From a virus: a DNA stretch of 64,000 bases. Positions 1-17,637 of this stretch are shown here, in pieces. The translations under genes and the position numbers were made by a program. The notes below the pieces were generated by a model. That model ran no database searches. It saw only the letters and a program-made list of their open reading frames with translations, and was not told where the DNA came from. Within the stretch, counting starts at the first letter, position 1. Each line of letters begins with the position of its first letter. The DNA lies in the IMG/VR virus record IMGVR_UViG_3300008448_000014, positions 32,001 to 96,000 of that record. One strand, given 5' to 3'.

Positions 1-759
1 TTCTTTTTTATCTAAATTAGGGTTTAATGAGTTAATGGTCCACCCATTAATTGGTTTTTTACTTTTGTCTAATTTTTTATAAATAAAATCAGAGATATTT
101 AAAAATTCCATAATTTCTGAAAATGTACTAAAAATTCTAATTTCTTTTTTTTCATAATTATATAAATATAAATAATCTTCTAAATGTAATTTACAAGTTT
201 TTGAAATAAATATATTATCTATAGATCTTTTAGATTTTATTCTACTAATTATAGCTTTAATAGTTGTATTAAATAATACAGCAGTAGAAGTAATACTTTC
301 TTCCTCTTTCAATAAATTTCCAAACTTATCAAACAAAAATAATTTTGTTGTTTTTTTCTTTATCTCATTTTTTTCATATTTTTCTTTTAATGTTTTACTT
401 ATTAATTTTTTAGTATCTTCTGTAGTTATTCTACTTTCAGGACCAATACCTCTATCTTGAGCATTTAATAAATTAAATTTATCTTTATACTTTCCTATTA
501 ATGATGTTTCAAAAATATATGATTCATTCCATCCTTTAATTTCAATCAATTTTTTAATTTTAGGTTCAATTCCTTTTTTTAATAAAGAATTTATCCAATT
601 TACTTTGTGGGGAGGATTTCTGTTAGGAAAATATTTATTATAATATTTTGATTTACTTATATGTTCAATTAACCTTATTTCTAAAGGTTTTCTAGTTCGT
701 CCAATGTATCTAATCTTACAATCTGTAGGATCATACAAACAATATATATTTACTTTCAT
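1..759 (-). CDS. GIY-YIG homing endonuclease (runs off window start; missing from the ORF track)
   Basis: Manual translation from ATG 759: MKVKYIYCLYDPTDCKIRYIGRTRKPLEIRLIEH..., a YIY-x-YIG motif with the catalytic Arg; the frame appears open to position 1. Confidence 0.85.
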   Translation of the reverse strand, partial: MKVNIYCLYDPTDCKIRYIGRTRKPLEIRLIEHISKSKYYNKYFPNRNPPHKVNWINSLLKKGIEPKIKKLIEIKGWNESYIFETSLIGKYKDKFNLLNAQDRGIGPESRITTEDTKKLISKTLKEKYEKNEIKKKTTKLFLFDKFGNLLKEEESITSTAVLFNTTIKAIISRIKSKRSIDNIFISKTCKLHLEDYLYLYNYEKKEIRIFSTFSEIMEFLNISDFIYKKLDKSKKPINGWTINSLNPNLDKKE

Positions 760-762
760 AAG

Positions 763-770
763 CAAATATA
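763..770 (-). promoter_or_regulatory. Bacteroidota -7 promoter box TATATTTG, 3 nt before the endonuclease ATG
   Basis: Matches the TAnnTTTG consensus; a TTTG lies at 786-789. Confidence 0.65.
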
Positions 771-803
771 ATTATAATTTTACAGCAAACTGGTATATAA
801 ATG

Positions 804-860
804 TTAAATTGTTGTTAAATCACCTGTTTGTCCTACAATTCCAATTAGTTTAGAGCTCAT
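804..860 (-). pseudogene. Orphan 5' stub of a P-loop NTPase gene, broken inside Walker A
   Basis: MSSKLIGIVGQTG-DLTTI*: a hydrophobic strand plus GxxG with no GK[ST]; starts 2 nt after the stop of ORF 863..1051. Confidence 0.7.
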
Positions 861-1485: not shown

Positions 1486-2568
1486 TTATATATATTTAAT
1501 TTTGTTTTTATCTATTAATTGAAGTGATTTCTCAAGCCATTTATTTTGAAAAACTTCTGTACTCACAAATATATGTATATGTGAATGATCTGTATCATCT
1601 AGTAAACTTCTTCCTATCATTTGCTCTAAATTTTCTCCATTACCATTAATGGCAGTTATTAATATATTTTGCAATTCTGGAAAAGTTACACCAGCAGAAG
1701 CTTTCTTTAATAAACACAATTGATTTATATCTCCTTGTTGAAATTGTTTTAAAATAGAATCATCTTTACTTTTACTATTGAACATAGGAAGATTATATTT
1801 AAGTCCTGTTTTTTCATCAGAACTAAATAATATAAACCTCTTATCTTTGTTATTGATAATCCATTTGTTTACACATTCAATTAAAGAGTCACATGAATTA
1901 ATAAATCTCATTCTTTCTAAAGACTTAAACATCTTTAGTTGACCACTGCTTTTTAATATAAAAGCACTGAGTCTGTTACATTCTTTTTTCTCTGTTGATT
2001 TCCATTTCTTTACTCTACCATACTCTACTATTTTAGTGTTATTTAAATTATATCTATGTATATAAATAGTAAAATCACTAACAATACCATCTTTAATAGC
2101 TTTGTTAGTAGAATAATCTACTATCAATTTCATTTTAGTAAAAAACTTTATGTCAGCTAAAGTTTCTTTATTATACGTACCAGAAGCAAACATTACATGT
2201 TTATTGTTTTTTGCTATATCTCCTGCAATAGGCATTTGATTTTCTTCTCCAAGAAGATGAGCTTCATCAAATACATAATAATCAGCAATTACTTTTTTGT
2301 TTTTTTCTAAAGACATAAAAGTGGAAAATATAATAATTTGTTTAAAGTTTAATCTATTTATTTCATTTTCCCAAGAAATACGCACGTCTATATTAGGATA
2401 AGCTATAAACACTGTTATTTCTTTATTATTACTATGATTTTTTATTGATTCTAAAATCATTTTTGTTTTTCCTGATCTTACACTAGATAATATAATACCT
2501 TTACAATTATTTTCTATAATAGTATTTTGTATTTTTTCTTGAATTAAATCTTTTTTTGTATTAATCAT
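1486..2568 (-). CDS. Superfamily 2 (DExH) helicase
   Basis: Walker A SVRSGKT, motif II FDEAH, SGT, QMIGRSL; likely start ATG 2568 (MINTKKDLIQ) overlapping the endonuclease stop. Confidence 0.85.
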   Translation of the reverse strand: MINTKKDLIQEKIQNTIIENNCKGIILSSVRSGKTKMILESIKNHSNNKEITVFIAYPNIDVRISWENEINRLNFKQIIIFSTFMSLEKNKKVIADYYVFDEAHLLGEENQMPIAGDIAKNNKHVMFASGTYNKETLADIKFFTKMKLIVDYSTNKAIKDGIVSDFTIYIHRYNLNNTKIVEYGRVKKWKSTEKKECNRLSAFILKSSGQLKMFKSLERMRFINSCDSLIECVNKWIINNKDKRFILFSSDEKTGLKYNLPMFNSKSKDDSILKQFQQGDINQLCLLKKASAGVTFPELQNILITAINGNGENLEQMIGRSLLDDTDHSHIHIFVSTEVFQNKWLEKSLQLIDKNKIKYI

Positions 2569-3313
2569 ATTTATATTTCCATTTAAATCCACAAGATTGT
2601 TTTTGCCTACCTTTTAACGTTGCAGGTATATCTCCTTTAAAAAATTTTTTAGCTTCTGTTACAGTTTTCCATTCTTTAATAAAATTATCATTTAAATCAT
2701 ATTGTATTATAGGTTTTGAAACTCTTTCAGAAACTTTTTTTCTATTCTCAATTGACATACCTTTACCTATATTACCTAGTTTAATTTTTTCTTTAGTAAT
2801 TTCAGATAAAATTCTACCTTTTTTAGCTTTGCTCATTTTTTCACGAGCCTCTTTTGACATTTTTTTACCTTTGTTACCTTGAGAAATTTTTTTCTTAGTA
2901 TCTTCAGTATGTTTTTTATTTAAAAAATGTCCTACATGTCCTAATAATGTTTTAGATATTTTATTTTTAGTTTCTTGTAAAATTATTCTATTACTCATTT
3001 TTTTCTTTGTTTCCTCGCTTACTATTCTAGGTAAAATATCTGTTTCTTGTAATCTACAATTTAACCCTTTAGTGGAAACAACATTAAATAAATCTTGATA
3101 ATATCTTTCTTTAAGATTTAATTGATCATGTTTACATTCTTCAATTATTTCAAAAATATGATTTTCTACGCCATATTTTAAAAAGCTTTTATACAAAATA
3201 GGTTGATTTTTACAAGAAAGATTTTTATAATTTTTAAATCTTTTTTCAATATTAATACTTTGCCCAATGTATATTTTACCACTTGGACTTGTGATTTTAT
3301 AAATTCCTATCAT
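2561..3313 (-). CDS. GIY-YIG homing endonuclease with NUMOD3-like repeats and a C-terminal NUMOD1-like domain
   Basis: MIGIYKITSPSGKIYIGQS; repeated H/SEETKKKIS; PIIQYDLNDNFIKEW...GFKWKY; likely start ATG 3313. Confidence 0.92.
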   Translation of the reverse strand: MIGIYKITSPSGKIYIGQSINIEKRFKNYKNLSCKNQPILYKSFLKYGVENHIFEIIEECKHDQLNLKERYYQDLFNVVSTKGLNCRLQETDILPRIVSEETKKKMSNRIILQETKNKISKTLLGHVGHFLNKKHTEDTKKKISQGNKGKKMSKEAREKMSKAKKGRILSEITKEKIKLGNIGKGMSIENRKKVSERVSKPIIQYDLNDNFIKEWKTVTEAKKFFKGDIPATLKGRQKQSCGFKWKYKYD

Positions 3314-3343
3314 TTTGTATAAAATTAATTTTATACAAAAATA
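3313..3343 (-). promoter_or_regulatory. TATTTTTG -7 box overlapping a perfect 28-bp palindrome that reaches the start codon
   Basis: ttttgtataaaatt|aattttatacaaaa at 3313-3340; box at 3336-3343. Confidence 0.7.
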
Positions 3344-3388
3344 AGTAATTAATATCAATATTTGGACAAAGTATTATTTTTTTTTTAT

Positions 3389-3415
3389 CTACACTTGTAT
3401 TTCTGTTTTTGTCAT
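3389..3415 (-). pseudogene. Probable orphan 5' stub of the SF2 helicase gene
   Basis: MTKTEIQV*; its ATG overlaps the TGA of ORF 3412..3630 (ATGA coupling) and it resembles the helicase start TKKDLIQ. Confidence 0.45.
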
Positions 3416-4357
3416 AATTCTTTGTTATAATATTCTTCTTCAAAATGTTCATATAAAGCCATCAATGTGTAAGAATGTTTTTTTGTTAACCATTCAGCAA
3501 AATGAATTACTTTGTTATCAGTATTAATTTTTTCTAGTTCTTTTGCTTTTTCAATAATTGGTTCATCATCAGCTATACTCACACCAGTTAATGTTTTTAT
3601 ACCATCAACTACATATTCTACTGCTGTCATAACTTCTTAGTTAAATAATATTTTAAATCTAATGCTCTTCTTTTAACAGCACCAGACATTCTGGTATTGC
3701 TAATATCATGTTTACCTATAACTATTCCATTATAACTACTAACATATCCTGTTGTAGCTTTAGCAACTGTTATAGCTTCATCCACTGTATCTGAGAATCT
3801 TTTGATTTCAGATTTAATTTGTATTAAGTCTTCTAGTTTCATTTTTTATTATATTTTATTAATTTCTATTTTGTTTTAAATTATTTTTCCATTCTATCCA
3901 AAAACCTATAGCTACTAATATATTCATACCAAAAGAAGCAATAATTTCATGTAAGTCTTCATATATATTCATAGTTAAGTGAACATGTCCAATTACCCAA
4001 AAAGGTACTGATAAATTACTTGCTGTCCATGTTATAAAAAATATAATAAATTTTTTCATTTGTCTCCTTTACTAATCAAGTAATACCATAACCAAATCAC
4101 TTTTGGCCTTATAAACTCATAACCTATCCATATTAATAAGTATTTCATTCTTCTTTGTTTTTTATATATCCATATACATTAAAACCTTCTTCATCTTCAT
4201 ATTTAGTACCATCCTTACGAACTCCCCATTTATACCACATAGCCATAATTGTTGATTCATTAGTTTTACTCCATTTATCATCTTCAAACCTGAATTGTTC
4301 TTTGTCTGATTTTTCTTTAAATAAAGGAACAAATCCTTCTGGTTTTTCTTTTCTCAT
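3412..4357 (-). other. Cluster of small hypothetical CDSs (3412-3630, 3627-3842, 3859-4059 membrane protein, 4145-4357)
   Basis: ORF track; overlapping stop/start codons; 3859-4059 has two hydrophobic segments. Confidence 0.65.
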
Positions 4358-5427
4358 TATTGTAAAAAATATGATTTGTTAATAATACTTTCATAATCTG
4401 CATCTGTAATATCTCTTTTTCTAGGCAATTCCTTGAAAATTCCTAATTTTCCTAAAAATGCAAGTCCAATTCTAATATCATCTTCACCATATGAATTTTT
4501 CAATAATCTTAAACTTCTGAAATATTTACCACCATACTCATCTTTGAGTTTGTTAAGATCATATCCAGAAGTATCTTCCACTTTATATCTCACAGGATCA
4601 AATAGAGCAAGAACAACATCTGCATCATTTTGTGTGCTAGATGAATCTGAAAAATCTTCTAGTTGAGGTTCTACATCTCCTGCTTTAAGTCTCATTGGAT
4701 TAGATATACTTCTATTAAACTGACTAACAATTACAGGAGTATAACCAAAGAAATCTCTAACATATTGAAGTTCATTTGACATTTTATCAATTGCTTCTTT
4801 TTTTGTTGGCTGATCTTTTGTTGTTTTCAATAATCCTATATGGTCAATAATAACAATAGTTATTACATTAGGATCATTAGGAACATATACTTTGCTATAT
4901 TCATCATCAGGATCTTTTTGTATTATTTTACCATTCTTTAGAGCGTGTGCTCTTAGTTCTTTGGCTATACCTACAGGATTCTCTGGACCATCTATAACTG
5001 TAATAACATCTTTCATCTTATCCATATACCATTGATAGGAAAGAAATAATTTATGTTCATCTTCAGTCATTTTTTCTGTCCAACCTAATAGTCTATTAAC
5101 AGACATACTTATACCATGATCAAGAAATATCTTTCTACACACCCATTTTGCATACTTGTATGTAGAACTTCTCTCCATTGATCTATATATAATCTTTAAC
5201 TTTATATCTGTATTATTCTTTTTAGATATATACCAATCAAAAGGATTAAGAACAAAACAATCATCTATAAAAGAAGTTTTACCACTTCCTGTATTACCAC
5301 CAATAAGAAACATCATAGACTTCCTAATACCTATATATCTATTAAGTCTATCAAATCCCATAGGAATACCATTATTGTTTCCTTCCAATCCTTTATCAAC
5401 TTCTCTCTTTAATTGCTCAAAACTCAT
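4357..5427 (-). CDS. DnaB-like (SF4) replicative helicase
   Basis: GGNTGSGKT, SMER, IIDHIGLL, VSQFNR, QNDADVV, LKNSYG motifs; TATTTTTG box at 5451-5458 upstream. Confidence 0.88.
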   Translation of the reverse strand: MSFEQLKREVDKGLEGNNNGIPMGFDRLNRYIGIRKSMMFLIGGNTGSGKTSFIDDCFVLNPFDWYISKKNNTDIKLKIIYRSMERSSTYKYAKWVCRKIFLDHGISMSVNRLLGWTEKMTEDEHKLFLSYQWYMDKMKDVITVIDGPENPVGIAKELRAHALKNGKIIQKDPDDEYSKVYVPNDPNVITIVIIDHIGLLKTTKDQPTKKEAIDKMSNELQYVRDFFGYTPVIVSQFNRSISNPMRLKAGDVEPQLEDFSDSSSTQNDADVVLALFDPVRYKVEDTSGYDLNKLKDEYGGKYFRSLRLLKNSYGEDDIRIGLAFLGKLGIFKELPRKRDITDADYESIINKSYFLQ

Positions 5428-5464: not shown

Positions 5465-5917
5465 TTAACTGAATAATTTCTCTAACCATTCATTCATAAT
5501 TAAAGATGTTCCTTTAATCTCTTCTATATGATTTCTTATATCATCTCCTTTAAGAGCAGGCCAGTATTTTACATAGCCACCACAATTACCATCTTTAGCT
5601 CCAATACGTAAATCTATTCCATATTTTGTACTAGTGTTCTTAAGAAGACCAGTTCCAGTATATTTTAGCCAATAATGTGCACCTCCTGATTTAGTGTTGT
5701 AATGATAACTCTTATTTAGTTCTACTAATATAACCATTGGTATATTCTCAAAACCATCTTTACCATTTTTACAATCTACATCTACTACAATATATTCATC
5801 TGTAGGAGATACAGCTAGATTATAACCTTCAGGAATTTCTCCTTCAAAATAATATCCTGAAGGAATAGAACCCCACTTACATGTGGGGGTTCCATTTCTC
5901 AACAAAAAACTCTTCAC
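5465..5917 (-). CDS. Bifunctional primase-polymerase (prim-pol) catalytic domain
   Basis: VVDVDCKNGKDG, TKSGGAHYW, GIDLR...GGYV motifs; next to the DnaB-like helicase. Confidence 0.8.
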   Translation of the reverse strand: MKSFLLRNGTPTCKWGSIPSGYYFEGEIPEGYNLAVSPTDEYIVVDVDCKNGKDGFENIPMVILVELNKSYHYNTKSGGAHYWLKYTGTGLLKNTSTKYGIDLRIGAKDGNCGGYVKYWPALKGDDIRNHIEEIKGTSLIMNEWLEKLFS

Positions 5918-6180
5918 TAAAAAGAATATTGTTTACGTGCTTTATCTGTTTCCCAGAATTTAGCATAATTATGATTATAAGCATAATCAAACACTCTATC
6001 AATCTCTTCATTTACATCACTATCTTCACTATCTGCTGCTTTAAGGCAATCTAATTCTGTTGCTTTTATATAACAAGCATAACCACAAAGAGCAAGAATG
6101 TTTACATCTCCTCCACTTCCACCATTAAATTCTAATTTGTTATCTGTAATAAACTGTTTTAATTTTTCTAACTTGTTCAT
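5917..6180 (-). CDS. Small helical protein, possibly a stand-alone primase C-terminal (PriCT-like) domain
   Basis: FNGGSGGDVNILALCGY...EEIDRVFDYAY; stop overlaps the prim-pol start. Confidence 0.35.
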   Translation of the reverse strand: MNKLEKLKQFITDNKLEFNGGSGGDVNILALCGYACYIKATELDCLKAADSEDSDVNEEIDRVFDYAYNHNYAKFWETDKARKQYSF

Positions 6181-6196
6181 GTTTTTATATATTTAA

Positions 6197-6746
6197 TTAG
6201 TTAATAGCTGTATAAGGGTTAGACTCTATCCATTCTTTTAGAAAATCTTCTTTCTCTGATAAACTTTGAAAGTTTAATTCAGCAAAACTATCTCCAGATC
6301 CTATTCTTTCCCACGTTTCTCTATTGTTTGGTAATCCTATAAAATCACTAGATTTCTTATCTGATGATAATGTTAACATTGATTTCAATAATTCTTCTAT
6401 TGTTGCCATAATTTTATTTTTTAATTTTTAAAAAGTTTTCTACTAATGTTTTTATTATAAATTCGTCTGCATGGCAGTCTTCATATCCTGTCCATACTAA
6501 TGTATTACTGATTGCATCTGCTAATTCTTTGTAGTTTTTAGGTGTAATACATAAAAATTCATCTATTTTAGTTTCAATATCAGCAATAGCTCTATCCATT
6601 GTTGGATAACCCATAGAAGCATTTCTATCTTTTTCTTTATTTGAAGTAGATAGTACATCTAAAGCATAACCATGAAAGAATCCAGTTTCATAGACTGCTA
6701 TTGTAACAGAACAATCTTTGTATTTATAAGATTTAACTATTGCCAT
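6197..6746 (-). other. Two hypothetical CDSs (6197-6409, 6414-6746)
   Basis: ORF track; tight operon spacing. Confidence 0.6.
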
Positions 6747-6748
6747 TT

Positions 6749-7498
6749 TTATAATTGTTTAATTGTTTCTCTTAATAATTCTAACTCTGTTTCACTAATT
6801 GTATGGTTTAATAACCATAAATCAATAATTTTAATTAATATTTTACTATTCTTCTTTACAGATTCTACTTTCTCATCTACTTTTTGAGAATTAAATATGT
6901 TTTCATATTCTAACATACTAGTTAGTATCTCTTTGTATTTAAGAACAGCTTCATCAGTGTTATATCCACGTTTATAATACTTAAAACATCTTTCAAGCTG
7001 ACGTAATATTCTACTTACAGCCCAAATGTTTGGATTATAAAAAGATTTATTCCATTTATTCCATGTAGCTATTCCTTCTCTACCCTCAGAAAGATTTAAT
7101 GTCTTTTTAGATTTTAAATCATATCCTATAGCAATTATATCTAAATCAAATGTACTAAGTACATCAAATATAGAATGGTTCTTTTCTTTAAATATAATAT
7201 TAACATCAATAGCCATATTGTATTTAAACTTAATAGTTATAAGTCCTAATTTCTTTAAACTTCCTTTATAAGGATTAGAAATCCAATCCTCAAACTTCCA
7301 TTTCTCTATTGGATCTATCAATAAAAACATTTTATTATGATAGAGAGTGAATAATAGTTTTGTGAAGGCAGCTTCATCATATGTGAATATATCAACATCT
7401 GCTCCTTCAAAATATTGAAGCATACAGCTTCCAGTTATACATCCATTAACATCCTGTTCTTTTAAAAATGCAATAGCATTTTCCATTTGTTCTTTCAT
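6749..7498 (-). CDS. Pol-beta superfamily nucleotidyltransferase
   Basis: hGS-x(n)-DxD motif ITGSCMLQYFEGADVDIF; later DVNII and STFDL. Confidence 0.7.
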   Translation of the reverse strand: MKEQMENAIAFLKEQDVNGCITGSCMLQYFEGADVDIFTYDEAAFTKLLFTLYHNKMFLLIDPIEKWKFEDWISNPYKGSLKKLGLITIKFKYNMAIDVNIIFKEKNHSIFDVLSTFDLDIIAIGYDLKSKKTLNLSEGREGIATWNKWNKSFYNPNIWAVSRILRQLERCFKYYKRGYNTDEAVLKYKEILTSMLEYENIFNSQKVDEKVESVKKNSKILIKIIDLWLLNHTISETELELLRETIKQL

Positions 7499-7532
7499 CT
7501 TGTTTATTTATTTGTGTTCTATGTTATAAAAT

Positions 7533-7563
7533 AAAAAAGACACCTAAATTAATAGGTGTCTTT
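7533..7563 (-). terminator. Intrinsic terminator after ORF 7584..8075
   Basis: Stem gacaccta/taggtgtc followed by a T-run on the minus strand. Confidence 0.75.
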
Positions 7564-7583
7564 AATGTTAAAATGACTAATAA

Positions 7584-8075
7584 TTAGTCTAAATGTGGCT
7601 CTAAAGTTGTTACAGCTTCTACAATTTGCTCTAATGTATATAAAGCCTGTAGTTTAACAATTTTGTCTGTAGAGAAATACAATCCAAACTCTTCAAATTC
7701 TGCAATGATATTGAATTTTTGCATGATTCTGTTCAATTTTTCTGCTTTTCCTTCATCTTCTTTATTACCTAACCAAGCCAAAGCTTCTTTTTGTAATTTA
7801 TCTAATGTAGGAGTTTTTACTTCTTCTGGAGCAGTTACATAAGTTCTTTTCTCATCATTCAATTTTTCTGTAACTTGTTTTACTACACTTTCAAATGTAA
7901 TAACTTCTTTCACTTTAAAATCTGTAGCTCTAACTGTATTAGCTAAATTTACAAGATAATGAGCTTCTTTTTGAAGAGTTACAAATTCTTCGTGATTTAC
8001 AGGAACTTGTCCTTCTGTTGCTACTAAATAACCACCATTCACTAACGCTAATTCATTGTTTTTTAAAAATTTCAT
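7584..8075 (-). CDS. Hypothetical protein, last gene of the MoxR-vWA unit
   Basis: ORF track; A-rich leader; followed by a terminator. Confidence 0.75.
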   Translation of the reverse strand: MKFLKNNELALVNGGYLVATEGQVPVNHEEFVTLQKEAHYLVNLANTVRATDFKVKEVITFESVVKQVTEKLNDEKRTYVTAPEEVKTPTLDKLQKEALAWLGNKEDEGKAEKLNRIMQKFNIIAEFEEFGLYFSTDKIVKLQALYTLEQIVEAVTTLEPHLD

Positions 8076-8132
8076 TTTTTTTTTGTGTTTTAAATTATTA
8101 ATTATTAATTATTTTGAGTGTCCTCTCCAGGT

Positions 8133-9125
8133 TTAATTTAAGTCTTTTACCCAATTGCTAACATGTTCTACATTACTACAATCAAACATATCAGCATAAC
8201 CTGCTAATGTACTACTGCTTGTTGTATGAAAAGAATATATTTTATTCACTTTAAAGTTACAAACATCATATGCTTGTTTCTTACTAATAGCTCTTTCTGA
8301 TCCCCAACTATCTAAAGGTGTATGATAATCACCAAATACAATAACATTGTCATAGTTTCTATGTTGAGAAACAATAGCTCTAAAGTCTTTACATTCATTA
8401 TTTTGACCATAATCTTGATACACTTGATCTATATCTAAGCTATCAACTTCTGTATAATCAAATAGCCCTGATCTAGCTCCTGTAATAATCAAATCAGCAA
8501 AGAACTGTGTAACCATTGTTTTACTCAATAATAGACAAGCTTTTGCAATAGATTTAGGAATAGATGCTGATATATCTATAATAATAAGATTTCTATCTGG
8601 TGTGCTCAATGTAATATTACCAGATGTATTATCTAGTTTTTTATTATACAATGAAGGATTCCATGTTATAGAACTCAATATATTAGATTTAATAGCATCT
8701 TCTATTTTAGAGCTAAACCATGTAGGAATAACTTTCAAATTCTTTAAGCAATCTAAATCTACTTGATATGATATATCAGCAATAAATTCTTCTACATCAA
8801 CAGAAGGAGTTACACCATTAATTGTAGTGTCCACTGTTATTTTAGAATCATCATTAATATATATACATTGCTCTGAATATGCTTTAGACTTAAACAAATC
8901 TTTATACCCATTCTTTTGTAATATTGCTTGCCAATCAAAAGGAAGACCTGTTGCTATAGCAGATTTTAACAATATTTCAAACTCTAATAGTTTTACATAA
9001 TTGTTATAATCTTTTTTGTTTCCTTTAATAAAAGGAACACCCATAGGAATTGTTGCCAATTCTTTATCATCTTCTATAAGATAGACAATAGGTAGACTAA
9101 ATTTTTTACTCTGTAATAATTCCAT
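8133..9125 (-). CDS. vWA (MIDAS) domain protein
   Basis: IIIDISASI (DxSxS) and VIVFGD; overlaps the MoxR gene. Confidence 0.7.
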   Translation of the reverse strand: MELLQSKKFSLPIVYLIEDDKELATIPMGVPFIKGNKKDYNNYVKLLEFEILLKSAIATGLPFDWQAILQKNGYKDLFKSKAYSEQCIYINDDSKITVDTTINGVTPSVDVEEFIADISYQVDLDCLKNLKVIPTWFSSKIEDAIKSNILSSITWNPSLYNKKLDNTSGNITLSTPDRNLIIIDISASIPKSIAKACLLLSKTMVTQFFADLIITGARSGLFDYTEVDSLDIDQVYQDYGQNNECKDFRAIVSQHRNYDNVIVFGDYHTPLDSWGSERAISKKQAYDVCNFKVNKIYSFHTTSSSTLAGYADMFDCSNVEHVSNWVKDLN

Positions 9126-9894
9126 GTTTCATAATTTTTTGAAGTTTTAACCAACTAATTTTCTCATTCTGTTTAAATACGTAATCATTTATTATTAAAT
9201 CACTATCTCCTGTATTCTCTATTAAGTTATTTAATATAGGATTTAGTTTATTCTCGTAAGGAGTTTTAATACCTGCAATCATCATTTTAATAGCTTTTAC
9301 AAGACTTCTTGGTGTATTATAATTCTTTTCAGAACTATTAAATGATTCATTTTGTATTAATACACACAATTGCTCAAAGATTTCATCTGTCACCATAAAC
9401 TTAGCCATATATTCTTTCCAAGCTGATTTATCAAATGCAATATTATACCATATAAATCTTTCTTTAATCTGTGGTGTAATAATTGTAGCTCCTTGTGGAT
9501 TAGCTGCTGCTACAATCATAATCTTTGGAAGCTTTTTACCACTAATCAATTCTCTGTTCTCTAATATAGTTAAACATGCATTTAACACCATTGTATTAGC
9601 ATTTAATAACTCATCAAAGAATAGTATATCACCATCTTTTAGAGATGTAAACATTTTGGTATCAAAATACTCCACTTCTTTTTGTTCATGAACAGGAAGT
9701 AACATACCACTAACCTCGTGAGGCATTAATTGACTTGCAATAATATCTAAACACTTAACACCTTTTTCTTTAGCAAACTGCTTTATCACTTCTGTCTTTC
9801 CTATACCAGGATTTGATAGAAATAAAGGAATACAGGTTTGCCTTAATTCTTCATCTTCATAAATCTTTTCTAACACATTTAATAGTTCTCTCAT
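9106..9894 (-). CDS. MoxR-family AAA+ ATPase
   Basis: SNPGIGKT, ILFFDE, IVAAANP, KERF, TPRS; likely start ATG 9894. Confidence 0.85.
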   Translation of the reverse strand: MRELLNVLEKIYEDEELRQTCIPLFLSNPGIGKTEVIKQFAKEKGVKCLDIIASQLMPHEVSGMLLPVHEQKEVEYFDTKMFTSLKDGDILFFDELLNANTMVLNACLTILENRELISGKKLPKIMIVAAANPQGATIITPQIKERFIWYNIAFDKSAWKEYMAKFMVTDEIFEQLCVLIQNESFNSSEKNYNTPRSLVKAIKMMIAGIKTPYENKLNPILNNLIENTGDSDLIINDYVFKQNEKISWLKLQKIMKHGIITE

Positions 9895-9907
9895 TGTTTT
9901 TCTAGTT

Positions 9908-10940
9908 TTAATTATTCTTATTTTCAAATTTTATTAATTCATTATATAATGATTCTGGAATTTCTTCCCAATCATGCCCATCATAATTTTCAATACTCCA
10001 ATAAAATTTATCATTTACTTTTTTAATATGCAATCCTCCATAATAGTTTCCTATATTGCCAATTTCTCTTTCCATTTATTATTTTTTAGGTTCTACAAAT
10101 ATTTTTAATGTTCTACCATCATCTTGATATGATAATTCTACATCAGAATTATATATTACATATGCTCTTCCTGTATGATCTATCACTTCAAGTCTTGTAA
10201 CTTTAGGTAGTTTATAAATTCCATCAACTATTACTTCTCCATCTTTCATAATCCTTTTTCTTTTTTATATATTTCTAATAGTTCTTTAGTTGAATGATTA
10301 ATCCAAAGTTCTGAATGAAATTGAATCCACTTTGCAAACTCAATAGCAAATTCATCTGCTATTTGCTCTATGATTTCAGCATCCTCAAAAATTGGAATAA
10401 CATAATAGCTTCCTTTATTTGTGGCTTTTGCAAACCTATCTCTTAGTGTCATAAATGTATTTGTATTTTTCTTGTTTCACATCCCATTTTATGTTTACCT
10501 CCTGCTAAATTACAATAAGCACACTTCTCTGTAATAATCTTATATCCTGTATCAATAGGCTTAAAGTCTTTAACTATATAGTCTTTAAAACCAAAACTAT
10601 CTAATGACATACCTCTAGACATATAAGGACCACCTGAAGGGTCAACCATATCAATCTCATTTTTTAATGAATCAACCATCTTTACATATTCAGGATAATG
10701 ATATGTATGAGTTTCATCATCCCATTCATGTACAGCTTTCTTAAATAATTCTAAAGACATTCTTTCTCCATTGTAAAAGTTTTCTATATGATCTTTGCAA
10801 TATTTATCATATGCTTTTGTATAATCATTTGGCATACCTATTCTACAATATTCAAAATTACCTTGCCATAAGATGTCTTGATTTTCATCTTCTGTATATG
10901 TGAATATATCACCATATCTATTTTTATAAGTTTTTTCCAT
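9908..10940 (-). other. Small hypothetical CDSs (9908-10075 and 10079-10249 below the ORF-track cutoff; 10246-10452; 10449-10940)
   Basis: Manual translation (MEREIGNIGNYYGGLH..., MKDGEVIVDGIYKLPKVTRLEVID...) plus ORF track. Confidence 0.6.
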
Positions 10941-10944
10941 AATA

Positions 10945-11562
10945 TTAAATATCTGTTGCTCCTATACTATCTGTTTCTTTTGTATTAATTCCTTCTTTTA
11001 ATAATTCTATAAAAGGTTCATAACTTCTCTGATTCAGATATGTTGAAGAGTTTTGCATATATTTTAGTTTGTTAGTGTTTTCTTTAAATGAAGCCTCTTT
11101 CTTTTGTAAAACATCAAGATTTAAAGCATCAATTAATTGTTTAGATGTGTATTCTCCTTCAAGAAGTATTTTATCAAACTTAACTCTACAATCATCAGGA
11201 TTTTGTCTTAATGTTCTACTTCCTGTAAATGTTTTACCTTTGTATGTAAAAGTATCTGTACCAGGAAATGTCTTATACCACTGTTCAAACTCTGTAACTG
11301 TTTTCTTTTTGATAATCTTCTTTTGTCCTTTACTTTCAAGGAATAATAAAAGCTCAACACCATGGGTAGTAATTTTACTATCATCTGTAATGAGGCCTTT
11401 TCTTAGCAGTCCTTGTTGTAATCCAGCAATTTTCATACTTTCTTCTCCTAATTCACTTATATCAAATCCTTCATTAACTAGTTTTAGTAAGAAGATGTGA
11501 TCTAAACTGTAAGATCTTTTTTGTAGTTCTATAAAATGATGATTTTCTAATGTAATTTTCAT
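10945..11562 (-). CDS. Replication initiator / replisome-organiser-like protein
   Basis: N-terminal winged-helix-like region; C-terminal FEQWYKTFP...YMQNSSTYLNQRSYE pattern. Confidence 0.55.
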   Translation of the reverse strand: MKITLENHHFIELQKRSYSLDHIFLLKLVNEGFDISELGEESMKIAGLQQGLLRKGLITDDSKITTHGVELLLFLESKGQKKIIKKKTVTEFEQWYKTFPGTDTFTYKGKTFTGSRTLRQNPDDCRVKFDKILLEGEYTSKQLIDALNLDVLQKKEASFKENTNKLKYMQNSSTYLNQRSYEPFIELLKEGINTKETDSIGATDI

Positions 11563-11818: not shown

Positions 11819-12019
11819 TTATTTAATTTGAATAATTAATTCTTTATTTAGTTTATTACAAAACTTTTCTAATTGGTCTAATGATAAATCTAATCTACCA
11901 CTTAACCATTGAGTCATATTTGGCGTATGAGCTTTATATCCTAACATTATACAAAAATCTGTCTGAGAGCAATTATAGCTTTGAAATAAGTCCCATAATA
12001 TTTGATTAGATTGTTTCAT
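11819..12019 (-). CDS. XRE-type HTH protein
   Basis: SQTDFCIMLG...MTQWLSG...LSLDQLEKFCNKL. Confidence 0.65.
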   Translation of the reverse strand: MKQSNQILWDLFQSYNCSQTDFCIMLGYKAHTPNMTQWLSGRLDLSLDQLEKFCNKLNKELIIQIK

Positions 12020-12461
12020 AATCCTTTTATTCTAAGACCATAAGCCATATCAAACTGGTCAAACCATTTCTCTCCTCTTAGTCTGTTACATTTATAAATC
12101 TTTCTAATCAATTTAATGGCATATTTTTTAAATTCATTATGCTGTTCTCTAGTCATAGTGAAATTAAAATACCATCTGTCATCATCTATAGCATCTAATC
12201 TAGTTTTACCAACCATATTAAGTTCATAGTCTACAAGATGCTGAACTAAGTTTTCTCTTGTAAGTTTTTCCATAATTATAATTTCTTTAATCTATTATAA
12301 CATCTTAATTCACAATGAAATTCATGTTCAACTTCACATTCAACTTCTTTATGGTCTACATGTTGAAGTATAAATAATAATTTTTCATAATCAAAATCTT
12401 CTTTTTTATATTTTTTAAGAAGTTTATGCTTTTTAATTATTTTTTTAATAAATTTTATCAT
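12016..12461 (-). other. Two hypothetical CDSs (12016-12273, 12276-12461)
   Basis: ORF track. Confidence 0.55.
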
Positions 12462-13135
12462 AATTTTTTAAATGTTTTATTAATCCATTCTGCAAACAAC
12501 AATAACTCTTCAACTGTAGCAGAATTTTTAATTGTATTAGCTTTCATTGAAATAATTTGTATATTACCTTTTATATATCCTTTAGTGTTATCAATTCTGT
12601 CTACAGAAGGCGAAAATTTATAATTATCTTTAGTTCCTTGTATTATAGGCTGTAACAGAATAGGACATATTTTTGGTATAACAATATCTTCTAGAGTAAT
12701 ATTAAATTCTATTCCTTTTTTTAAAGCTCTATCTTTACAACCTTTTAACAAAACTGCAGAAATATTTCTTAATCTACTTTCTCTTTTTTGTTTATTAATT
12801 TTTTCTTTAAAAATAGGATCATTATGTATTTTTTCTTTTCTTACAGCTCCAGATTTTTTAGCATATTCAGAAACTTTGTGTTTTTCTGAACAACATGTTT
12901 TACACCAAGTGTGTAATCCACCTTGTAATCCTGCATTTTTTGAAAACTCTTTTGCAGGTTTTGTTTTTTTACAACAAAAACAAGTTTTTTCAGTTAATGT
13001 TATTTCATATCTTTTAGTTTGTTTGATTAATGATGCACACTTTCTACAAGTACTTATAGTACCATCTAATGTTAATTTTGAATTTACAAATTCAATTAAA
13101 GGTTTTTCAATATTGCAATGTTTACAAATCTTCAT
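12458..13135 (-). CDS. HNH-type homing endonuclease with two N-terminal Zn fingers
   Basis: CxxC pairs; PSVDRIDNTKGYIKGNIQIISMKANTIK; likely start ATG 13135 (MKICKHC). Confidence 0.85.
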   Translation of the reverse strand: MKICKHCNIEKPLIEFVNSKLTLDGTISTCRKCASLIKQTKRYEITLTEKTCFCCKKTKPAKEFSKNAGLQGGLHTWCKTCCSEKHKVSEYAKKSGAVRKEKIHNDPIFKEKINKQKRESRLRNISAVLLKGCKDRALKKGIEFNITLEDIVIPKICPILLQPIIQGTKDNYKFSPSVDRIDNTKGYIKGNIQIISMKANTIKNSATVEELLLFAEWINKTFKKL

Positions 13136-13141
13136 AATTAC

Positions 13142-13186
13142 TTTATTTAATGAGCTCAAATTTACTTAAAGAACTCATTAAATAAA
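13142..13186 (-). promoter_or_regulatory. Inverted repeat enclosing a TAAATTTG -7 box upstream of the HNH gene
   Basis: 13-bp arms tttatttaatgag (13142-13154) and ctcattaaataaa (13174-13186); box at 13157-13164. Confidence 0.7.
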
Positions 13187-13211
13187 AATATTTAACAAGA
13201 AATTAACATTA

Positions 13212-15242
13212 TCACTTTGCATCATACCAAGAATTTCCATAATGTGCGTCTGCCTTGATTTTTAATGTTTGTAAATAATGGTTTCCACCTTCAATCATAG
13301 CTTCTTCAACTTTAGTTCTAGCTAATTCTGCTAAATCTACAGGACATTCTATTACTAATTCATCATGTACAGAATTACATATTTTAATTATATTAATATA
13401 ATTATTATCAACTATCCAATCAAAAAGTATTAAAGCACTTCTCTTAATCATCATGGCACTTCTGGCTTGAACAGGGTTGTTAAGGCATAAACGTTGGTAT
13501 TCAGATTTAAGTTTAAAAAATTGACTCACTTCTGTTTTCTTTGACTTATAATATGTCACAGCTTTAGGAAATATATATGTATATTCATTTCCTTTTTCTT
13601 TCTCATCAAACTTCTTTTTATAATCTAATTTACCTTGTTTATATAACTGCCATTGTTCTTTAGTTATAGCCTCAACTTTACCTTTGTATTCATTAAACTT
13701 ATCAAACTTTGGTAGAGCTAGTTTCCAACCATCTGCAGATTCTATATATCCTTGCTTAACAGCTTTATTGAATTCTTCTGCTCCCCATGTATACAATCCT
13801 TCATGAAGTTCTTTAAAAGCATCTTCAATTCTATATGCTTGTACTAATGGTATTCCTTCATTTTGATGAATAGTATATGCAGAACCACCATATTGAAATG
13901 CAAACCTTGGACTCTTTGCTGCTTGTCTTTTAGATTTATGTTCTTTAATGATTGTTTCATCATCAAGTTCTTCTAATTCTGGATATAAAACTCTAGCAAA
14001 AGCACAATGCAAATCATCTCCATTAACTACAGAAGATGTCATTGCAGCATCTCCAGATAAATCTGCAGCTACAACAGTTTCTTGACCACTATAATCACAA
14101 ACAATAATTACATTACCTTTATTAGCTTTAAAACACTTTCTTGTAATACTATCAGAAGGAAAATTTAAAAAGTTTATATTTCCTTTTCTAGTAGATAGTC
14201 TAGCTGTATCAACCATAGGATTAAAGTTAGTGTATATACGTTCATTCTCTATTTGCTTGTATATACTTTCTCCAAAGGTTGTAACTCTATGATTAGCTTC
14301 TTGAAAACTAAGCCACATATCAACAAAATCATGTTTAGATTTCTTTATAATGTTTTCTCCAATACTATCTTTACCATCTTTATCCTTTGTAGGGATACCA
14401 AAAGCATTAAAGACTTTAAGCATTTGTGATGGTGAATTAATAGATACATGTATTCTTTTCTTTGTGTCAAACATATCTATTTGTCCATCTGCAAATTGTG
14501 GAAGATTATCATATATATACTCTTCAATTATAGTTTTCCATTTGAATGTATTTTCTATGTCTTCAACCATTTTATCTTTCCATGATTTAGAGCTAATAGG
14601 AAGCCCACATTGCTCAATATATGCTAAAGCTCTAATATATCTACAATGAAGATTATATGTCTCTGTAAAGCCTCTTTTATTGATTTTAAGCATTAATGCA
14701 TCATGTAACTCAATAAGTCTATCAACATCATTAAATGAATACTCAATTGTACTCTGTTGGCTTAATTTAACTATATGAATATTCTTTTGGTCTGTTTTGT
14801 CATATATAACATCAAGTTCTCTTTCCATCACTTTACCAAAATCATGTCTATAAGGCATAAAGTCTTTATCAACTTGTCCATTATATATAATCTTACTAGC
14901 AAGCATTGTATCTCTAACATCTTTAGGATAGAATCCATACTTATAACAAAACCCTACATCAAATAATGCATTATGAAATATTAATGTCTTGCTCTCTATA
15001 TAAGGAACCAAATCACTAAACTTATAACTATTTTCTCCACTAGTATATAAGTCTATAATATAATTGTTTTTTCCTGTTCCAATTTGTACACAAAATATAT
15101 CACAATGTCTTGGTTGAAGTCCACTAGTTTCTGTGTCTATTCCTATAATATCAGGTAAAATTAAATCAGTTAAATCACAGTAATTATACTTACCAATTTT
15201 TTCAAAATATTTTTTATTTTTAGTTATAATAAAATTTGCCAT
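13212..15242 (-). CDS. polA: Family A DNA polymerase with 3'-5' exonuclease
   Basis: ExoI DTETSG, ExoII HNALFD, ExoIII YSFND, TARLS, motif A DYSGQE, motif B RQAAKSPRFAFQYG, motif C VHDE. Confidence 0.95.
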   Translation of the reverse strand: MANFIITKNKKYFEKIGKYNYCDLTDLILPDIIGIDTETSGLQPRHCDIFCVQIGTGKNNYIIDLYTSGENSYKFSDLVPYIESKTLIFHNALFDVGFCYKYGFYPKDVRDTMLASKIIYNGQVDKDFMPYRHDFGKVMERELDVIYDKTDQKNIHIVKLSQQSTIEYSFNDVDRLIELHDALMLKINKRGFTETYNLHCRYIRALAYIEQCGLPISSKSWKDKMVEDIENTFKWKTIIEEYIYDNLPQFADGQIDMFDTKKRIHVSINSPSQMLKVFNAFGIPTKDKDGKDSIGENIIKKSKHDFVDMWLSFQEANHRVTTFGESIYKQIENERIYTNFNPMVDTARLSTRKGNINFLNFPSDSITRKCFKANKGNVIIVCDYSGQETVVAADLSGDAAMTSSVVNGDDLHCAFARVLYPELEELDDETIIKEHKSKRQAAKSPRFAFQYGGSAYTIHQNEGIPLVQAYRIEDAFKELHEGLYTWGAEEFNKAVKQGYIESADGWKLALPKFDKFNEYKGKVEAITKEQWQLYKQGKLDYKKKFDEKEKGNEYTYIFPKAVTYYKSKKTEVSQFFKLKSEYQRLCLNNPVQARSAMMIKRSALILFDWIVDNNYINIIKICNSVHDELVIECPVDLAELARTKVEEAMIEGGNHYLQTLKIKADAHYGNSWYDAK

Positions 15243-16003
15243 TATTTGTTTCTTTTTACTTTTTTAAAGAATAATCCTTTATAAGATTTGTTATTTTTAA
15301 TTGCTCTAAATATATTTTGATAAGATACTATTTTATTTTTTAAATACTTTTTATTAAATTTTTTAGCATTAATATTGTAAAACTCAATATAATCAGGAAT
15401 TGGTAAATCATTTTCTTTTGTTCTAGAAAATCTATCTATTTCCAAAGTATTATCAAATCTTCTAAAAAAGTTCATATTAATATCATACACTTCTATGTCA
15501 TCAAACATATTTTTTCTAGCATCAGAAATGTTATTACATACTAAACCTTTATTCCAAGAAGGTTTACCTTTTTTAATATTAGATAAATGTTGCCTGTAAT
15601 TTTCATTATTTTTATATCTTTCCTTTAATGTATCACTTATTTTTTTCTTTACATCACTATTACAAGGAGGTTGAGTAGTAACATCACTTATATTGTATCC
15701 ATTTTTAATACTATTAAAAAAGTTTATATAAAAAGATTCTTTTTCTCTTATAAAAGGTATATTATTATTTTCTAATATTTCTATTACAGAAAATTCAAAA
15801 TTTTCTATACCATGTTTTAAAACAGAATTATTTAAATAACTATTATGATGGTTACCTGTCTTAAGTTTTCTTACATGTTCAGTATATCTTCTTTTAAAAG
15901 TCATTTTTGTTGACCCAATGTAAACTTTATTATTTAATAAGTTTTTTATCATATAAACTCCTGAAAGTTTAAATGTTTCTAAATTTGGTATTGCTATTTT
16001 CAT
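15242..16003 (-). CDS. GIY-YIG homing endonuclease
   Basis: SGVYMIKNLLNNKVYIGST...RRYTEH; NUMOD-like PSWNKG; stop overlaps the polA start (TAATG). Confidence 0.9.
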   Translation of the reverse strand: MKIAIPNLETFKLSGVYMIKNLLNNKVYIGSTKMTFKRRYTEHVRKLKTGNHHNSYLNNSVLKHGIENFEFSVIEILENNNIPFIREKESFYINFFNSIKNGYNISDVTTQPPCNSDVKKKISDTLKERYKNNENYRQHLSNIKKGKPSWNKGLVCNNISDARKNMFDDIEVYDINMNFFRRFDNTLEIDRFSRTKENDLPIPDYIEFYNINAKKFNKKYLKNKIVSYQNIFRAIKNNKSYKGLFFKKVKRNK

Positions 16004-16007
16004 AGCA

Positions 16008-16039
16008 CAAATATATAAAATTTACATTAGATACACAAA
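16008..16039 (-). promoter_or_regulatory. Bacteroidota promoter: TTTG (-33), 20-nt spacer, TATATTTG (-7)
   Basis: caaa at 16036-16039 and caaatata at 16008-16015; 4 nt before the endonuclease ATG. Confidence 0.75.
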
Positions 16040-16061
16040 CATTTTTAAACATTAGTTAGTT

Positions 16062-16184
16062 TTAACCTGTTGTTTCACTATCACAAGCAATTACATCTGG
16101 AAGAATCATATCTTCTAAACTACAATAATTGTAATCACCAATGCTTTCAAACTGTTCTTTATTCTTGCATACTATATAGTTCAT
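16062..16184 (-). pseudogene. Orphan 40-codon 5' stub of polA
   Basis: MNYIVCKNKEQFESIGDYNYCSLEDMILPDVIACDSETTG*; 25/40 identical to the start of PolA at 15242 by manual alignment. Confidence 0.93.
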
Positions 16185-17637
16185 CGTCTTCTTCTTCTGT
16201 TAAAAATTTAAGTACCACCTTCTGTTCTACAAAGTTAGGAATAATTGTTGAGATTTCCTCATCATAAAATGATTCATGTATCTCAATATCAAGCCATCCA
16301 TCATACTCATTAATTATAACATTTATATCTTTAAGGGATATAGGTCTTAATTCATCAACATGAACTCCTTCATCCCACCAACCTATTTCATGTGGTTCAG
16401 CAAGAATATCTCCATTTTCGTCAATAATACACACTTCCATAGGTGCACCATGTTCAACTAAAAACTTTTCCTTATCAAAAGGAATAGTTTCTAGTTCCCA
16501 TAATATTGTTTCATGTTCAGTAACTCTGACAAACAACATTCCTTTCTCTAGTTCTTTAGGCATATAACTCCTAAGAACTAATTCTGCTTCATAATTGTAC
16601 ATGTCATTTTATATTAGTTAATGGATAAGCATCATAAACAGATTGAGGGTTAATGTAACGCTCGCTGTAATCAGTGCCATTAATCATTTGCCTCATAGTT
16701 GTTATTTTTGCTTCTTTAATAACTTTATCTAAAGCCTCTTTTACGTGCATTTGTGCAAATTCAATCATAGCATAATTAATATCATCTCCTGATAATATAT
16801 CAGTAGGTAAATTTTCTCTTTTTAAAAATTCTTCTGCTGTTGGTATATTTTTCATATTATATAATTCTTTCATAGTTATGTCTAATAATACTATCTATCT
16901 TATTACTCAAATCTGTTAAATATGTGCTAGAACTTATTTCAGGAAAACCATACACTTTTGTTATTAATTCTTCACAAACTGGAAGTAAATCTTCCACTTT
17001 ATCTTTAAATCTTTTAGATAAAGGTTTTAGTTCATCTATTTCATGTGTATAATCAGCTAATAAAGCCATTAATACAGTGACTGTGTGACATATTTGTGCT
17101 TCTCTTTTTGGTGTCATAACTTTTCTATTTTTTGTTTAATTTCTTGCCAATAAATTATTCTTGATTTCATCCAAACTTCACCACATTCTAAAAGTTCTTC
17201 AATAATTTCATCAACTGCTATTAATCCACATTGTTTTGCTATTGATGTGCAAAGTATTTCGTTACCGCATTCAGTGGCTTCGTTCATTAAAATAATACGA
17301 TACTGATTTACTAACTCTTCTGCTTTTTCTTTTGGTGTCATAATGTTATTAATTCTTCTTGTTCTACACTAATTTTATTTGTTACTTCTTCTATTTTTCT
17401 AAATCTATCTATTCTAAATGTAGGTTCCATAAATTTATTTACTAATTTAAACCATCTTGGTGGATTAATTATCTCTTCAAGTCTAACTCCTACAACAAAA
17501 TCAGAATCAACAATATCTCTTATAGTGTATTGTTTATCTTTAACTACCCAATTAGGACAATCTTTTAATAATTCTGCTACAGTATGTGGCTGCATTGAGC
17601 TATCAATGCAAACCACTTTGTCTCCTATATCAAACAT
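16159..17637 (-). other. Cluster of hypothetical CDSs (16159-16602, 16604-16873, 16857-17117, 17114-17341, 17338-17637)
   Basis: ORF track; overlapping stop/start codons. Confidence 0.7.

Follow-up and report, generated by a model that had tools for sequence, protein, structure and literature searches.

The question raised by this locus is why a virus should carry the beginning of its DNA polymerase gene twice, with a homing endonuclease gene (HEG) between the two copies. The stretch analysed here (the window) comprises 64,000 nucleotides (nt), bases 32001-96000 of the 113,909-bp viral record IMGVR_UViG_3300008448_000014, which has direct terminal repeats. On its minus strand, a complete polA gene (15242..13212, 676 amino acids (aa), with family-A polymerase and 3'-5' exonuclease domains according to Pfam) is preceded by a HEG of the GIY-YIG family and, further upstream, by a stub that repeats the start of polA, the two copies of the same 40 codons lying ~940 nt apart on the same strand. 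Our findings show that the stub is the original polA start and indicate that the HEG arrived together with a foreign replacement for it, and we consider it probable that this cassette descends from a mobile group I intron, having lost the ribozyme and taken up a spare exon 1.

The layout had been described in an earlier note, whose observations on the stub mostly hold: its coordinates, its 26-nt overlap with the upstream 147-aa gene and the lack of an internal stop are as described there, and only the identity to the working N-terminus has to be corrected, from 25/40 to 24/40 (tblastn E ~1e-14, far beyond chance). The stub ends directly after the ExoI motif D-x-E-T-x-G with a TAA at 16064..16062, of which the T (16064) belongs to native codon 41, as its first base, and the AA to the inserted element; two more in-frame stops lie beyond it. 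A tblastn extension of the homology past the stop, as far as residue 63 and across 2 stops, was rejected, since this segment is the HEG spacer common to a second locus, L081, and the resemblance of the post-stop TTTGTGT, in register with polA codons 49-51, is explained by the T/AAA junction and AT-rich sequence. Because the C-terminal coding part of the 147-aa gene is homologous to the gene directly 5' of polA in two loci that lack the HEG (L033 and L005), the stub stands in its original context. The exact 40-aa open reading frame (ORF) is recorded on four JGI contigs and a variant of it, P0144, on a Logan contig; therefore, it is not an assembly artefact of one record. A search of sequencing runs listed 20 DNA runs, mostly lake or freshwater metagenomes with small shares, and no RNA run, a result that bears neither on habitat nor on expression.

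Comparison with relatives indicates which of the two starts is the native one. Among 38 related polA loci from viral contigs, none carries a second N-terminal copy, and in the four that are closest over the whole protein (L037, L004, L005 and L033, 77-79% identical) the N-termini are 75-82% identical to the stub versus 53-66% to the working start. Closer still are three HEG-less alleles of 672 aa, P0138, P0139 and P0140, which belong to the same 90% protein cluster as the window PolA and are 96-98.5% identical to it from residue 77 on; the genomic contexts of these alleles, and those of P0144, P0001/P0121, P0009/P0122 and P0002-P0020, which appear below, were deduced from protein sequences alone. 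The stub agrees with residues 1-40 of P0139 at 40/40 positions and with those of P0138 at 38/40. The window PolA matches P0138 at 591/600 positions over residues 77-676 but at only 23/39 over residues 1-40 and 22/33 over residues 41-76, and its residues 1-76 are 59-67% identical to the HEG-less alleles as a whole. Since the backbone is nearly identical to that of a HEG-less allele while the start agrees at only ~60%, the working start must be foreign and recent. These comparisons strongly support what the earlier note had proposed, namely that the stub is the native polA start, that the insertion is recent and that the working N-terminus, residues 1 to ~75, came from another lineage.

The foreign tract contains a 3-residue indel-type difference (DLYTSGENSY versus VMYNNNY), its last diagnostic residue is K74, and its right boundary falls between codon 74 and ~codon 85 (~15021..14988). 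The most donor-like N-termini over residues 1-76 are those of P0122 (59/76, 78%) and P0124 (57/76), which implies that the true donor is unsampled; among GenBank phages no close relative was found, only short patches at 69-79%. Elsewhere in the same protein, residues 601-676 form a separate mosaic module, in which P0121 and the window differ at 30/76 positions, compared with 20/524 in residues 77-600. In the 59-aa ORF P0143 (ENA contig, 1685 bp), the polA N-terminal frame continues past ExoI and breaks after ...EMFCLQI, which hints that some relative may have a further insertion site ~15 codons downstream.

The same comparisons bear on a local origin of the two copies. If the polA 5' end had been duplicated in tandem on either side of a HEG already in place, and its copies had then diverged inside this genome, their closeness on one strand would be accounted for; nevertheless, such an origin is hardly credible, since the copy that is conserved (40/40 with P0139) is the non-functional one, whereas the functional copy is unlike that of every close relative, differs from it by an indel and resembles another lineage. 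Moreover, the foreign tract runs ~35 codons past the duplicated part, and a backbone 98.5% identical to a HEG-less allele leaves no time for ~40% divergence. The earlier note had judged the copies too different for a local duplication.

The gene between the two starts matches Pfam PF01541 at residues 15-104 (E 9.6e-10), and R39, E89 and N104, which we take to be the equivalents of the catalytic residues of I-TevI, are invariant in an 18-member HEG alignment (A1). Its relatives span 96% to 50% identity, the closest being P0001 (96%), and profile scans of metagenome and genome contigs with the HEG alignment returned distant members and the locus L080 only. The HEG is preceded by a non-coding spacer of 58 nt (16061..16004), and its TAA has one base (15242) in common with the polA ATG. 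The earlier note had seen a full -33/-7 promoter in the spacer. The motif TTTG-N20-TATATTTG, presumably fitting the Bacteroidota -33/-7 promoter consensus, does lie at 16039..16008, just 5' of the HEG start, and the spacer is homologous to the one before the HEG of L081 (local score 52, reached by 0/2000 shuffles), where the position and the core of the motif are kept; TATATTTGTG is likewise found 5' of the HEG of L080. What did not stand is an enrichment of the bare pattern, which has 5 matches in the window versus 4.1 expected.

The position at which the stub breaks off finds its counterpart in L080, a 64-kb contig of a metagenome-assembled genome (MAG). There, a 40-codon ORF ending in ...ETTG and a stop is followed by a HEG 53% identical to that of the window and by a group I intron (RF00028) at 6735-6983 (87.9 bits, E 1e-22, Rfam), which overlaps the last 35 HEG codons, and polA resumes at 7001 without a duplicate N-terminus. 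The reading frame allows only one G-terminated 3' splice site (G7000), and the predicted spliced product, ...ETTG/LDSKKHDIFC, is colinear with intact PolAs. Exon 1 would end at the T after GGA, a U being usual at the 5' splice site of group I introns, and the stop of the exon-1 ORF consists of this exon T and the first two intron bases (AA). The junction GG(A/T)T/AAA between exon and element lies at the same nucleotide in L080 and in the window, which reads GGT T/AA, and up to this junction the window stub is colinear with L080 exon 1. As for the P1 guide sequence, a search for RTYCAGT inside the L080 intron found nothing, and a 4-bp GUCC candidate at the HEG/ribozyme boundary is not relied on here.

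The same order recurs in more distant relatives. The polA of L078, L079 and L088 is only ~24-33% identical to that of the window where the two align. In each of these loci RF00028 (66-70 bits) comes after a HEG relative, and polA sets in behind it at ~residue 49; in L078 and L088 an exon-1 ORF ending in D(S/T)ETKGF and a stop stands 5' of the HEG. L075, L076 and L082 have the same layout, with no Rfam match at the gathering threshold. A polA split by an intron thus ordinarily looks like this, with a short ORF that stops at ExoI and a GIY-YIG gene behind it. It is this point that the earlier note had overlooked: the stub ends after ExoI because a conserved group I insertion site lies there, and the HEG is a member of an intron-borne family. 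In L080 itself, polA is interrupted at least 2 more times, with polA matches scattered over 5797..11339 and further RF00028 matches at 8191..8437 and 8940..9107 (60.4 and 41.3 bits); between the exon pieces lie two large ORFs (9099..10070 and 10408..11181) that look LAGLIDADG-like by eye. The intron-borne HEG is broken into several frames in L078 (6001..6821) and truncated in L088 (5942..6345), with the ribozyme still detected in both; these are cases of HEG decay inside a retained intron, the opposite of the fate seen in the window.

The group I ribozyme core, present in L080, L078, L079 and L088, is absent from the window, where RF00028 gave no match within 12000-17500 even at E<=10 with permissive filters. 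Nor is there non-coding room for a ribozyme, since the HEG stop overlaps the polA ATG and polA is then uninterrupted; on its right side the element has a complete new gene start, with no exon 2 junction and nothing to splice. This bears on the possibility that the stub is still used, through splicing, trans-splicing or ribosomal bypassing to polA codon 42, or that the locus is an assembly chimera of two strains. Relatives are predicted to splice at exactly this point and the window does come from a metagenome-assembled record, but the missing ribozyme, the two in-frame stops beyond the stub and a working gene with its own start and a full-length N-terminus (of the MANF... type) speak against any use of the stub, and the records of the stub on the JGI and Logan contigs, together with the same layout in L081, an independent assembly, speak against a chimera. 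We therefore regard both possibilities as very improbable.

The second ribozyme-less locus, L081, lies on the same contig as L030; its HEG is 61% identical to that of the window and abuts a full-length polA. In front of it stands a decayed stub consisting of the first eight polA codons (MNYIITKH), an internal deletion and then GAAACTACT followed directly by AAA. L081 shows the fate of such stubs over time, and the stub of the window probably has no protein function and would decay in the same manner.

The presumed loss of the ribozyme is also reflected in the C-terminal tails of the HEG family. One type, ...KKVKR followed by 1-3 residues and a stop, occurs in the window (...KKVKRNK, at a place where the intron-borne relatives read on into the ribozyme), in P0008 of L081, and in P0001-P0009, P0015 and P0021; the other, ...KKVPRNSN..., reads on and is found in the L080 protein and in P0010-P0020. 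As the first (5') helix in the ribozyme model, when translated, gives the read-on tail of L080, the two types part exactly at the ribozyme start. In a maximum-likelihood tree, in which P0014 and P0018 (KKIKRN plus six residues) were counted with the ...KKVKR type, this type is an inner group (an 11-member clade, support 95/93), the intron-type HEGs are basal without being resolved, and the outgroup P0024 has tail words ('ELLE', 'NQQPS') like translations of the L080 intron core. Together, tree and tails favour a direction from intron to ribozyme-less form.

The opposite order of events has also to be considered. A free-standing HEG that was never intronic, located upstream of a donor polA, could have cut the ExoI site of the recipient, whose left DNA end, for want of homology, was joined illegitimately and left the stub; the intron-borne relatives would then be later, having arisen when the HEG invaded an ORF-less intron at its own target, as in the 'collaborative homing' of Bonocora and Shub. 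The HEG has a promoter-like spacer of its own and directly abuts polA, the base of its tree is without resolution, the spacers of the window and L080 have no detectable homology, and free-standing HEGs that target intron insertion sites are documented and have been proposed as a route to composite introns (PMC3984707). On the other hand, the left junction T/AAA is the 5' splice-site nucleotide of the L080 intron and is matched in L081, whereas end-joining would scatter; the intron-borne forms extend to polA lineages that are far more divergent, and to the HEG outgroup; and the HEG is broken on its 3' side at the point where the first ribozyme helix starts. Hence, a free-standing ancestor seems unlikely to us, and an intron ancestor remains the preferred reading.

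Two features of homing are seen at the window locus, a presence/absence polymorphism among close relatives and a co-converted flank, and the distribution of the two parts of polA suggests that the cassette has moved more than once. Over residues 77-600, the window and P0138 differ at 5 sites and P0121 and P0139 at 9, with 20-23 differences between the pairs; 12 informative sites back this split and 0 group the two HEG-type alleles. Over residues 1-76, by contrast, the window and P0121 have only 2 differences, and both are ~30 away from P0138 and P0139. Since a HEG-bearing genome is without native codons 41-71, simple loss cannot explain this incongruent grouping, which points to entry of the cassette, that is, the HEG with the foreign 5' tract, into at least two polA backbones by homing. 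The N-terminus of a third backbone, P0140, agrees with the stub variant P0144 at 39/40 positions, a finding that fits the idea that each recipient's own exon 1 becomes its stub.

Based on these observations we propose the following scheme, in which the activity and target of the nuclease, the repair pathway and the direction from intron to cassette are what we infer. The ancestral state would be the one seen in relatives, GIY-YIG HEGs residing in group I introns after the first base of the codon that follows ExoI. The cassette would have originated once, by one illegitimate join between the HEG 3' end in an intron-bearing polA and an A-rich region before the start of another polA, replacing everything from the 5'-most ribozyme helix onward, which overlaps the HEG 3' end, with a complete polA start. 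The resulting mobile unit would comprise the spacer with its promoter, the HEG, the exon 1 copy and the start of exon 2. In a recipient, the nuclease is expected to cut a HEG-less polA near the ExoI codons, and double-strand-break repair on a cassette-bearing template, with the stub (exon 1) as left and exon 2 as right homology arm, would copy the spacer, the HEG and the exon-1 copy and co-convert ~100 nt of exon 2. The outcome is visible in the window, where exon 1 of the recipient is cut off and left as a translatable 40-codon stub ending in its own T plus AA. Translation of PolA would then begin at the imported copy; the ATG of this copy overlaps the HEG stop, and splicing is unnecessary, and the HEG could be expressed from the spacer motif. 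Co-conversion and intronless homing are both established for phage HEGs (PMC3984707).

According to this scheme, the working junction between exon 1' and exon 2', being uninterrupted, must resist the nuclease. The earlier note had suggested that changed ExoI codons protect it from self-cleavage, an idea that is plausible but unsupported: the ExoI-codon differences of the working copy lie within the ordinary variation of 30-odd HEG-less alleles, and no substitution was found that separates the working ExoI junctions of the window and L081/L030 from ~30 such alleles.

Several points weigh against the intron-derived cassette. The escape of the working junction from cleavage is explained by no substitution found, and the activity and cut site of the nuclease are putative. 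The search for the donor itself was unsuccessful; P0122, which comes nearest, reaches the 78% mentioned above. The similarity between the window spacer and the 5' segment of the L080 intron is not significant. Intron-borne status was verified for L080, L078, L079 and L088 only, and ribozyme-less status for the window and L081 only, the other members being classed by their protein tails alone. The basal branches of the HEG tree are poorly resolved, support for the F-type having arisen once is only 51/40, and the tail used as type label was itself inside the tree alignment. Finally, the HEG of P0121 was assigned from its N-terminal type and from a 9981-bp contig recorded for both P0121 and P0001.

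The polA locus is not alone in having this layout (Table 1). The record L089 carries two other loci, a window coordinate being the L089 coordinate minus 4000. In the first, a stub, MSSKLIGIVGQTGDLTTI followed by a stop, is broken inside Walker A; a TATATTTG box and a 303-aa GIY-YIG gene follow, and after the HEG comes a 223-aa P-loop NTPase starting MSSKLIGIVGQTGTGKST. The first 13 residues of this stub and of the working start are identical, yet 9 codons differ, all of them silently. In 73/80 related loci, the first 39 nt of the NTPase gene resemble the stub more than they do the working copy, L091 having 4 differences from the stub versus 11 from the working copy, and the HEG-less L090 has a working-type 5' end; no relative of the HEG was found upstream of the NTPase in the 80 related loci. 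In the second, the stub MTKTEIQV and its stop are followed by a 265-aa GIY-YIG gene and by a helicase starting MINTKKDLIQ. The helicases of the HEG-less L170-L172 start MTKTEIQE..., and their first 22 nt are identical to the stub. In 3/3 loci (polA, NTPase and helicase), the ATG of the restarted gene overlaps the HEG stop. The same layout at three genes argues for a recurrent strategy of this genome rather than an accident at polA, and the replication module of this phage is densely populated with HEGs.

Table 1. Positions of the polA locus and of the two loci with the same layout.
Feature	Window position	L089 position	Strand	Basis or remark
Upstream gene, 147 aa	16602..16159		minus	ORF; no Pfam match; native left neighbour of polA
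Stub, displaced native polA 5' end, 40 codons + TAA	16184..16062		minus	ORF; colinear with L080 exon 1
Left end of inserted element, spacer with promoter-like motif	16004..16063		minus	motif search; homologous to L081 spacer
GIY-YIG HEG, 253 aa	15242..16003		minus	Pfam PF01541
Foreign replacement polA 5' end, codons 1 to ~75	15018..15242		minus	comparison with P0138, P0122
Rest of polA, native backbone type	13212..15017		minus	98.5% identical to HEG-less P0138; Pfam domains
P-loop NTPase locus	stub 802..860; remainder 1..765 and upstream of the window	4860..3186	minus	stub-HEG-restart
Helicase locus	stub 3388..3414; HEG 2561..3358; helicase 1486..2568	7414..5486	minus	stub-HEG-restart

Two neighbouring genes deserve mention. 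A fourth GIY-YIG gene, of 214 aa, lies directly downstream of the P-loop NTPase on the minus strand (L089 2461..3105, genome 30461..31105, outside the window). Directly downstream of polA, also on the minus strand, a 233-aa ORF (12458..13159) carries Cys-rich repeats at its N-terminus, with a weak Stc1 match (E 0.0036), and a C-terminal motif that looks HNH-like by eye; it probably encodes a further homing endonuclease.

The three loci raise the possibility, which we put forward tentatively, that mobile elements of a distinct class are present in these phages, namely an 'exon-carrying homing cassette' consisting of a GIY-YIG gene and a recoded spare 5' end of its target. Such a cassette would enter essential replication genes at their first conserved motif (PolA ExoI, NTPase Walker A, the helicase N-terminus) and would be made harmless by a restart of the gene, instead of by RNA splicing, protein splicing or a place between genes; the stub would serve as left homology arm and the exon copy as nuclease-resistant allele, and in the polA case loss of the ribozyme by a group I intron would have given rise to it.

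The closest precedent appears to be the so-called mORF gene hybrids of fungal mitochondria, of which the window would be a mirror image. They are known from atp6 of Allomyces macrogynus and from atp6, atp9, cox2 and nad3 of Glomus, where an endonuclease ORF is inserted with a foreign C-terminal segment and the native C-terminus lies downstream, relative-like and often unexpressed (PMC3630166); C-terminal duplications of atp6 and cob likewise adjoin GIY-YIG or LAGLIDADG ORFs in fungal mitochondria (PMC6279837). As in these hybrids, a foreign copy of one end of the target gene accompanies the endonuclease ORF of the window, and the native end has been pushed aside but survives nearby, unused; it agrees with the closest relatives, the working copy being the one whose DNA sequence diverges. 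In both cases the situation is read as recent horizontal homing. The polarity, however, is reversed, since the window element replaces the 5' end (the N-terminus) and mORF elements the 3' end. Furthermore, the HEG of the window is a separate ORF with its own ATG, as is polA, and not an in-frame fusion; an inserted end in phase with the upstream native gene, which is a feature of the mORF hybrids, is not found here, where the stub has its TAA and two further in-frame stops. The remnant in the window lies upstream and is still translatable, and its site holds a group I intron in relatives.

The second system of reference is that of the phage intron-encoded GIY-YIG HEGs of the I-TevI type, reviewed together with the introns of phage DNA polymerase genes (PMC3984707); a group I intron is also reported in polA of Pf-WMP3 (PMC3428280). 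With these the window HEG shares a GIY-YIG catalytic domain joined to a C-terminal DNA-binding part, a target at a conserved catalytic-motif codon of an essential gene, a polymorphic presence among close relatives and a co-converted flanking exon, and its own relatives reside in RF00028 introns at the same site. Unlike them, it has no ribozyme and cannot splice, the gene being kept functional by a second exon 1 that has a start codon of its own.

Free-standing HEGs are the third. T4 SegF, SegG and MobE are reported examples with intronless or collaborative homing (PMC2988022, PMC2790892), and HEGs that target intron insertion sites have been described (PMC3984707). The window HEG resembles them in lying outside any intron or intein, beside its presumed target polA and with a promoter-like motif and expression signals of its own, in local co-conversion and in having an intron insertion site as target. 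In contrast to the classical cases, which stand between intact genes and carry no gene fragment, it is flanked by a 40-codon polA remnant and a restarted polA; the insertion lies inside the target, and the element supplies the missing part. In the Aeromonas phage Aeh1, nrdA is reported to be split by mobE and to function as two polypeptides (PMC3045599). Aeh1 is similar in that a HEG lies inside an essential phage gene of replication or nucleotide metabolism without intron or intein, but differs in that both halves are needed and reassemble, whereas in the window the upstream piece is redundant and the downstream gene complete. In the open-access literature, no HEG of a phage was found that brings along a replacement for the 5' end of a gene; subscription journals lay mostly outside this search, and a precedent may exist there.

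Taken as a whole, the locus adds to what is known about how such genes are tolerated. HEGs are usually said to be made harmless in three ways: by residence in a self-splicing intron, in an intein or in the space between genes. The window locus would document a fourth way in phage, in which the element cuts an essential gene and carries the replacement, and relatives display both the intron and the derived states, giving a concrete and testable example of an intron that loses its ribozyme while its nuclease stays mobile. For annotation, it serves as a warning that ORFs of 8 to 40 codons ending at catalytic motifs before GIY-YIG genes are displaced starts or exon 1 and not new small proteins. 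Such elements also leave core replication proteins with sharp N-terminal mosaics, a point of importance for polA-based phage phylogenies, and the presence of three cassettes in one 114-kb genome suggests that the strategy is common in this phage group.

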